NCBI RefSeq assembly: GCF_011745625.1
Contig: NW_027191487.1
Coordinates: 186,001 to 229,401 of the forward strand
Reading direction: 5' to 3'
Origin: Cladosporium halotolerans
Taxonomy: Eukaryota
DNA length: 43,401 nucleotides
Shown here: piece after piece, positions 722-1,497 of the stretch
Layout of the letters: each line of letters starts with the position of its first letter
Numbering within the stretch: position 1 is the first letter of the stretch
Made by a program: the position numbers and the translations under genes
Notes under the pieces: generated by a model
What the model was told of the DNA's origin: nothing
What the model saw: only the letters and a program-made list of their open reading frames with translations
The model's database searches: none

Positions 722-1497
722 CTATTTGGTGTAAACAGCCCAGTAAAATGGCCCGCCGGCGCCGATGTCACGCTTCGCATCCTCATAGTTGCCCACGTTC
801 CGGAAGGAGACCTTCGCACTGGGCCAGCCTCGCCATCGTCCGCAGGGCACAGGAACGCCCGTCTCGATGTCTTCGAGCTCACCTCGGTCGCGGAAGAACC
901 ATTCCATGTCGGGGATGGAGGGCGGGAGGCCGTCACCGCGCATCACCTAGATGCTGCGGATCGCCCTCTGCGGCTGGATGCGGGCGTAGCGAGGCGTGGT
1001 GCCGGGCTGGTTGTTTTCGGGGAAGCAGATTTCGCCGTTGGCGCTCAGAGCGGCTTTCGCTTGGCCTGGATACTGGATGGGTGTTAGCTGGAGCCGTGGG
1101 CACGCGTATGGATACGATGAAGTAGTACCTGGAATTGGACCAAAGCCCATGGGTTCATCGCCTTGGTATTGCGGCCGACCTTGACGTAGCAGGGACCGTA
1201 GAGCGATTGCAGGCAGGACTTGAGCATATCGGTGAGGGAATCATCGTCCCAGGACTTAGGGAGGTTGCCAACGAAGACGCCGGCGTCGTGAGGCGAAACG
1301 CATTGCGCCTGGTGAAACATGGCCTTCTCGGCCTCGAGGCGCGCCGGCACTGGCGCCAACGCGTTGGGCTTGACGGGCTCTGCCGGCGAGGTGAGCGGCG
1401 CAGGGCTCCCTGGAGGAGAGGGCAGAGGAGCGGACCGCGAGCGCGGCAGAGCAGCCTCATGCTGGAGCGGCGAGGAAGGAGTGGAGACCGAGCTCAT
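722..1497 (-). CDS. Tandem-RRM RNA-binding protein, Rim4-like, with one in-frame TAG at 947-949 (edited/read-through gene or young pseudogene)
   Basis: Exon1 1497-1129; intron 1128-1073 (GTACTA...GCTAAC...CCAG); exon2 1072-722. RRM1: GVFVGNL...YGPCYVKVGR...PWALVQFQ|YPGQAKAAL. RRM2 begins RAIRSI*VMRGDG and continues in the same frame to AKVSFRNVGNYEDAK. The Rim4-like call rests on a recalled motif pattern. Confidence 0.65.

Follow-up and report, generated by a model that had tools for sequence, protein, structure and literature searches.

How can a fungal gene carry a stop codon inside a protein domain, share it with its relatives, and still keep a reading frame behind it that evolves as coding sequence? 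This question is raised by a minus-strand gene in a 43,401-nt stretch of DNA from the Dothideomycete mould Cladosporium halotolerans (contig NW_027191487.1, positions 186,001 to 229,401; hereafter the window, numbered from its first letter). The gene runs from an ATG at 1497-1495 to a terminal TAG at 724-722 and is interrupted by one in-frame TAG at 949-947. The peptide context of the interruption is R-A-I-R-S-I-TAG-V-M-R-G-D-G, and beyond this TAG the frame continues without a further stop or frameshift. The original prediction of a single in-frame TAG, with no frameshift before 722-724 and with TAG also as the terminal stop, was confirmed from the sequence; the open frame of 75 downstream codons that it described is present as well, with the count corrected to 74 sense codons plus the stop. 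We propose that the unaltered mRNA would give a 164-residue protein with one RNA recognition motif (RRM), and that occasional bypass of the stop would extend it to 239 residues and two RRM-type domains. Selection on the second domain would require at least occasional passage of the stop, and we consider it likely that this conserved UAG is indeed bypassed in some way. The bypass could be adenosine-to-inosine (A-to-I) editing, which would turn UAG into UIG, read as Trp ("premature stop correction", PSC), and the enzyme would then be a Tad2/Tad3-type deaminase. The gene is laid out as follows.

1498..1635, minus strand: 5' leader, its limit being the reach of the RNA contig from run X15 (record 1).
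1129..1497, minus strand: exon 1, 123 codons, its Pro/Ser-rich N-terminus leading into the first RRM, of which it holds strands 1-3 (VFVGNL ... NPWALVQF).
1073..1128, minus strand: intron, 56 nt, GT..AG, with a CTAAC branch site.
950..1072, minus strand: exon 2 ahead of the stop, 41 codons, with the remainder of the first RRM (YPGQAKAALSANGEICF) and a linker ending RAIRSI.
947..949, minus strand: in-frame TAG and putative site of recoding; editing would act on the A at 948.
928..968, minus strand: predicted RNA hairpin with the stop codon in its loop UAGGU; stem GCAUC/GAUGC (5 bp), extended by CCGC/GCGG.
725..946, minus strand: open frame behind the stop, 74 sense codons, with a predicted degenerate RRM-like domain (VMRGDG ... 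FRNVGNY ... AVYTK).
722..724, minus strand: terminal TAG of the long frame; distant homologs end within 1-3 residues of here.
592..721, minus strand: 3' untranslated region (UTR), its limit being the reach of the X15 RNA contig; the periodicity in GC content at third codon positions (GC3) is gone.

The length of the downstream frame is of little help. Open frames of at least 74 codons are not rare in the window, whose GC content is 58%: they make up 13% of its stop-to-stop intervals, and 10% of shuffles of the downstream stretch stay open. With chance rates of this order, the open frame by itself proves nothing. The same rates, about 10-15% of cases, are in line with the view that the TAG is a true stop, that only the 164-residue protein is made, and that the frame behind it is a relic or is constrained otherwise, for example by a function in the 3' UTR. 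Base composition argues for translation. The GC content at codon positions 1/2/3 is 0.64/0.51/0.74 behind the TAG, 0.63/0.53/0.77 in exon 1 and 0.59/0.56/0.80 in exon 2, and it is flat by codon position (0.53/0.50/0.50) in the next 222 nt of the 3' flank.

Substitutions were counted against X4, a DNA run with another organism label, in which one contig crosses a 1601-nt stretch with 44 other letters (~2.7% divergence). The list gives 40 of 43 differences; the other three, a C>T, a G>C and a T>C, presumably lie beyond 1769, as the list ends there and X4 continues to 2000, a placement that is unproven. Among the differences listed, three fall in the 222 nt behind the TAG, all at third positions and 3/3 synonymous, compared with 24 in the 322 nt of the 3' flank (400-721). 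Exon 2 before the TAG has four synonymous differences and one replacement (G to D), and exon 1 has one replacement (P to L). With approximate site counts, the absence of replacements behind the stop has a probability of 4e-6 at the rate of the 3' flank and 0.0013 at the synonymous rate of the gene. This probability rises to 0.12 if the rate of the 5' flank and intron is taken as neutral, at which the constraint test is weak; this counts against a bypass and in favour of a true stop. A purely untranslated constraint, however, gives neither codon-periodic GC3 nor synonymous-only change. The frame-specific GC3, the synonymous-only differences and the distant homologs described below together place the downstream frame above chance: this part of the gene is constrained as coding sequence. 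The relaxed selection downstream of the TAG that had been raised as an alternative is thus not what the X4 differences show.

The stop itself is shared. No change at 947-949 is found among the X4 differences listed. In another strain, the 67-residue open reading frame (ORF) P0004 terminates with ...RSI at the stop and carries the same G-to-D replacement as X4; it lies on one 20.7-kb contig with P0008, an intact downstream ORF that differs from the downstream frame of the window in 1 of 73 residues. From X4 and the P0004/P0008 contig it follows that at least two lineages have the stop together with an intact, constrained frame behind it. Sequencing error and a private nonsense allele, both considered in the original prediction, are ruled out by X4 and P0004. 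An origin by repeat-induced point mutation (RIP), also suggested there, was rejected, the RIP signature being absent (TpA/ApT 0.52, (CpA+TpG)/(ApC+GpT) 1.39, judged by generally known thresholds for these indices) and the GC content agreeing. The sample of run X17 contains at least two or three strains of the gene, with ~3%, 8% and 11% divergence (records 4-7; 764-965, 1028-1288); its record 4, ~8% diverged, spans the TAG.

More remote relatives were collected by a phmmer search with exon 2 against 1.84 billion representative proteins, which gave five matches (P0003-P0007), four of them real. P0007, a 667-residue repeat protein with an E-value of 7e-4, was set aside as unrelated. P0003 is the downstream ORF of the window itself (73 residues, called on 17 contigs), and P0005 (75 residues, ENA, 39%) and P0006 (72 residues, JGI, 40%) match only behind the stop. 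A profile search added only P0012, and a cluster look-up added P0008, P0009 and P0010. The homologs P0005 (ENA) and P0006, P0009, P0010 and P0012 (JGI) are 38-40% identical to the downstream domain and represent three metagenomic lineages; their alignment has 19-20 invariant columns, including an FRN-G-Y motif, and a common C-terminus. Judging from these sequences, the second domain is old. A true stop fails to explain why homologs at this identity retain the motif pattern and end at a common C-terminus, and the one observation on its side from the protein searches, that no uninterrupted 239-residue form occurs among proteins of at least 204 residues, is weak evidence. Nor does it explain the foldable RRM-like domain described below. 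Taking both sides together, we find it unlikely that the TAG only ends translation.

The starts of these homologs bear on the position of the stop. In the alignment, the first codon of all five (P0005, P0006, P0009, P0010 and P0012) stands opposite the V that immediately follows the TAG of the window. The four from JGI have V-I at the first two positions and no Met before residue 14, so that their start is not the genuine N-terminus of a eukaryotic protein. Such ORF starts would be explained if these sequences had a stop where the window has it. The same data bear on the possibility that the downstream frame is translated separately, as a protein of ~73 residues, by re-initiation at the AUG of UAG GUG AUG or from a transcript with an internal start. 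An ATG indeed lies at 943-941, 3 nt past the stop, gene callers place the 73-residue ORF P0003 there on 17 contigs, and P0005 begins with M. However, this AUG is not conserved in the four JGI homologs, and the first strand of the modelled domain requires residues from before the stop, which makes separate translation improbable. The contigs, a kind of data that cannot reveal one, also show no internal transcript start.

Further searches were negative within their scope. Pattern matches in metagenome_contigs, 217 and 283 in number (alignment A1 and P0006 queries), included no relative that would provide DNA loci for the distant homologs, and in genome_contigs 0/97 pattern matches were relatives. 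Two loci in viral_contigs, L001 and L002, matched over only 17 and 11 residues and were taken as pattern artefacts. The search for longer proteins returned no longer or annotated relative, the search for near relatives with exon 1 returned only P0011, an unspliced 137-residue ORF, and no named homolog of the gene appeared in the phmmer, profile, longer-protein, exon 1 or PDB sequence searches.

What kind of domain does the stop interrupt? Exon 1, scanned alone, matches the Pfam family RRM_1 (PF00076) below the cut-off (E 0.0053, 17 bits against 20.7); the match pairs residues 74-123 with positions 1-47 of the 70-position profile. The RNP2 motif of the first domain, VFVGNL, is canonical by eye, and the start of exon 2 (YPGQAKAALSANGEICF) resembles helix 2 and strand 4 that are missing from the first RRM in exon 1. 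Neither the second domain nor its homologs had a Pfam match. A PDB sequence search gave 0 matches for exon 1 at E up to 1 and none for the part behind the stop, and an hhalign comparison of the second domain with exon 1 was not significant. The first match in an Atlas feature search scored 0.86, and RRM-type names were among the rows, which we take as leads only.

For structure prediction, the 11 residues that precede the stop were joined to the second domain, Trp took the place of the TAG, and the input was a 6-row alignment. The resulting AlphaFold model has a pLDDT of 73.7 and a pTM of 0.66 (the single-sequence model was poor, with a pLDDT of 50.2). The modelled order is strand-helix-strand-strand-helix, the last RRM strand not being formed, and the first strand comprises residues 10-13, S-I-W-V, with W in place of the TAG. 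Every Foldseek match listed is titled as an RRM protein or a complex containing one, including SF3b p14, hnRNP A1 UP1, La, U1A, Fox-1 and PABPN1; these matches are weak (E 5.4e-3 to 2e-2, TM 0.45-0.62). The RNP1 aromatic positions of the second domain are occupied by S and K. According to the model, then, the second domain is RRM-like but degenerate. The second RRM originally placed behind the stop is in this sense supported by the model and by the Foldseek titles, and lacks a Pfam match. The sequence pattern and the modelled strand 10-13 both put the TAG in the first strand of this domain, probably at the RNP2 aromatic position, as had been predicted.

The description of the protein as Rim4-like is unsupported: there is no named homolog, the RRM_1 match of exon 1 is sub-threshold, and the second domain is without a Pfam match. 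Yeast Rim4 and this protein both have RRM-type domains. Rim4, however, is larger and has three RRMs, whereas the protein described here would be 164 or 239 residues long, with no more than two RRM-like domains, of which the second is degenerate.

Could the stop be removed from the mRNA by splicing? Intron removal is seen in RNA: one 971-nt X15 contig joins 1129 to 1072, skipping exactly 56 nt, in agreement with the gene model, coordinates and intron originally proposed. As the splice ends read CT..AC on the plus strand, the transcript is assigned to the minus strand. The contig covers 1635-1129 and 1072-592 and is unbroken over the TAG, and no GT donor is present in 1072-950. A contig colinear over 1072-592 and the lack of a GT in 1072-950 indicate that no intron removes the stop in the main transcript. 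An alternative form of the transcript could have the TAG as the end of a longer, 182-nt intron with its donor at 1128 and its acceptor at 947, the homologs having an intron at this place. CTAG|G resembles a 3' splice site, the two junctions share phase 0 and would connect exon 1 in frame to VMRGDG..., and homolog ORFs beginning exactly there would also be accounted for. Against such splicing, the acceptor of the one joint observed is at 1073, the branch site lies ~138 nt from 947 with no nearer CTRAY, and the 123 nt that would be skipped are coding-like (GC3 0.80; four synonymous differences and one replacement) and complete the first RRM. We regard this explanation as very improbable. RNA run X19 covers 1388-1610 only, and a joint at 1568-1666 in X17 was set aside for its non-canonical ends.

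If the stop is passed during translation of the main transcript, its surroundings may tell how. The UAG is predicted to lie in a hairpin of -19 kcal/mol over 41 nt (z -2.41; 6/200 shuffles as stable), within a 5-nt loop UAGGU on a 5+4-bp stem, with U at -1 and G at +1; the wider context is AUC-UAG-GUG-AUG. If the closing C-G pair opened, the loop would be the heptanucleotide CUAGGUG with U-A as positions 2-3, an arrangement like that of an anticodon loop. The two strands of the window carry 573 TAG trinucleotides. In 42 of these the predicted fold places the A in a loop no longer than 7 nt whose stem has 5 bp or more, and four of the 42, among them the UAG considered here, reach -19 kcal/mol or better. 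Features favoured by fungal A-to-I editing are a U at -1, a G or A at +1 and a hairpin loop, and UAG is often changed to UGG (PMC11156358, PMC11169179). The sequence context here agrees with fungal editing in the U at -1, the preference named in the original prediction, in the G at +1 and in the position of the A in the predicted loop.

Two side observations were made in the same scans. Another TAG on the plus strand (11184-11186; hairpin 11165-11205) has an identical UAGGU loop in a stronger hairpin of -23.4 kcal/mol; there is no long frame in that phase, and the site adjoins a ribosomal-protein-S9-like ORF (10570-10902, minus strand). A search of the window for other stops between codon-like frames gave four sites, all on the plus strand, with a filter that missed the target gene itself: 23179 and 24936 lie opposite a long minus-strand frame (22605-25412), and 15969 and 16236 lie among overlapping frames on both strands.

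The main rival to editing is translational readthrough, in which a near-cognate tRNA would decode the UAG and the two-domain protein would be made without a change in the RNA. All evidence for a translated downstream domain applies equally to this mechanism. At UAG, the near-cognate tRNAs of yeast supply Gln, Tyr or Lys; of these, Tyr would suit the RNP2 motif as a canonical residue. Other features fit readthrough less well: i) UAG-GUG-AUG matches no known leaky motif (UGA-CUA, UAG-CAR-YYA); ii) a purine at +4 favours termination; and iii) the hairpin is left unexplained, a stop borne in its loop being already melted when it reaches the A site. Programmed readthrough in fungi is known from UGA-CU(A) sites that add cryptic tails. 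The gene described here resembles these cases in having a conserved codon-like frame behind the stop, but differs in its UAG followed by G, which belongs to no known leaky motif, and in the location of the stop, which is inside a domain and in a hairpin loop and not before a short tail. Readthrough thus appears to be a rather unlikely route.

A-to-I editing is, in our analysis, the single most likely mechanism of bypass, ahead of readthrough, and we put it forward tentatively. The gene shares several features with the PSC genes of Fusarium and Neurospora: a single in-frame UAG in an otherwise intact and expressed gene, U at -1 with the A in a predicted hairpin loop, and a stop that is kept in relatives and has a functional domain behind it. 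Of the Fusarium PSC genes, 43/71 encode hypothetical proteins and 71% have disordered regions (PMC10776026); likewise, the gene considered here encodes an orphan protein with a disordered region and a Pro/Ser-rich N-terminus. At the conserved PSC site of Fusarium CHE1, annotation either closes the gene with the stop or opens an ORF right behind it (PMC11169179), and automated callers treat the present gene in the same way. There are also differences. The present gene is a candidate known from sequence and lies outside the lineages in which such editing and the Ame1-Tad3 interaction are known, and, whereas the Fusarium PSC stops arose within Sordariomycetes, its stop may be much older and perhaps common to the 40%-identity homologs.

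Besides the weaker constraint test at the low neutral rate, several points weigh against editing or, more generally, against a conserved bypass. The usual residue at the RNP2 position is Phe or Tyr, not Trp. The homolog starts could also reflect an intron ending there, or a nearby stop elsewhere. The RNA contig of X15 has no change at 948 among the differences listed, as would also be expected if the TAG were a true stop; this contig is a consensus (Logan) in which minor variants are dropped, and 16 of the X15 differences, two of them T>C, are unlisted. The base at +3 is U, whereas G or A is preferred at this position (PMC11169179). Editing is described as known in Sordariomycetes and Pyronema and as not found in Aspergillus nidulans or Botrytis cinerea (PMC11156358). 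The enabling Ame1-Tad3 interaction is reported to have arisen in Sordariomycetes (PMC11087585), and our literature search, which drew on partial texts, found no report of editing in Dothideomycetes. We consider it possible, though less likely than not, that a Dothideomycete mould uses restorative A-to-I editing at a UAG in an anticodon-like hairpin loop, shared by homologs of ~40% identity.

According to reviews, it has yet to be settled which fungal classes other than Sordariomycetes and some Pezizomycetes edit mRNA (PMC11156358). If the proposal is true, stop-codon editing of the ADAT type exists, and is old, outside Sordariomycetes and Pezizomycetes; it would be independent of the Sordariomycete-specific Ame1-Tad3 interaction and would challenge the view that editing depends on a Sordariomycete innovation. 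If editing is absent, a conserved stop would still need to be bypassed, pointing to unusual UAG readthrough. Under either mechanism automated annotation splits the gene in two. A conserved, selected UAG in a hairpin loop provides a single-amplicon test of this question in a very common airborne mould; air, dust, aerosol and urban metagenomes are among the runs that contain the stretch, as fits such a mould.

The 5' end of the gene has features of its own. The TATA box described as intact in the original prediction is present as a TATAAATA TATA-like element at 1649-1642, and the 5' limit of the RNA contig, at 1635, is just 7 nt away. This closeness makes it doubtful that TATAAATA serves as the promoter element of the transcript. 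Further out, 1670-1838 is covered by a low-depth contig, and transcription may start upstream of the point that the TATA box implies. The leader contains two upstream ORFs. One has 38 codons and its ATG at 1610-1608, and its TGA (1496-1494) shares letters with the main ATG in the sequence ATGA; the other has 2 codons (1615-1607). An 18-nt deletion at 1518 is found in the relatives X15 and X19, and the upstream ORF stays in frame. The presence of these ORFs suggests translational control of the gene. Its upstream neighbour is a long minus-strand ORF (2339-3172) that resembles zinc-type alcohol dehydrogenases, as judged by eye from its GGLGHVAIMFARAMG motif.

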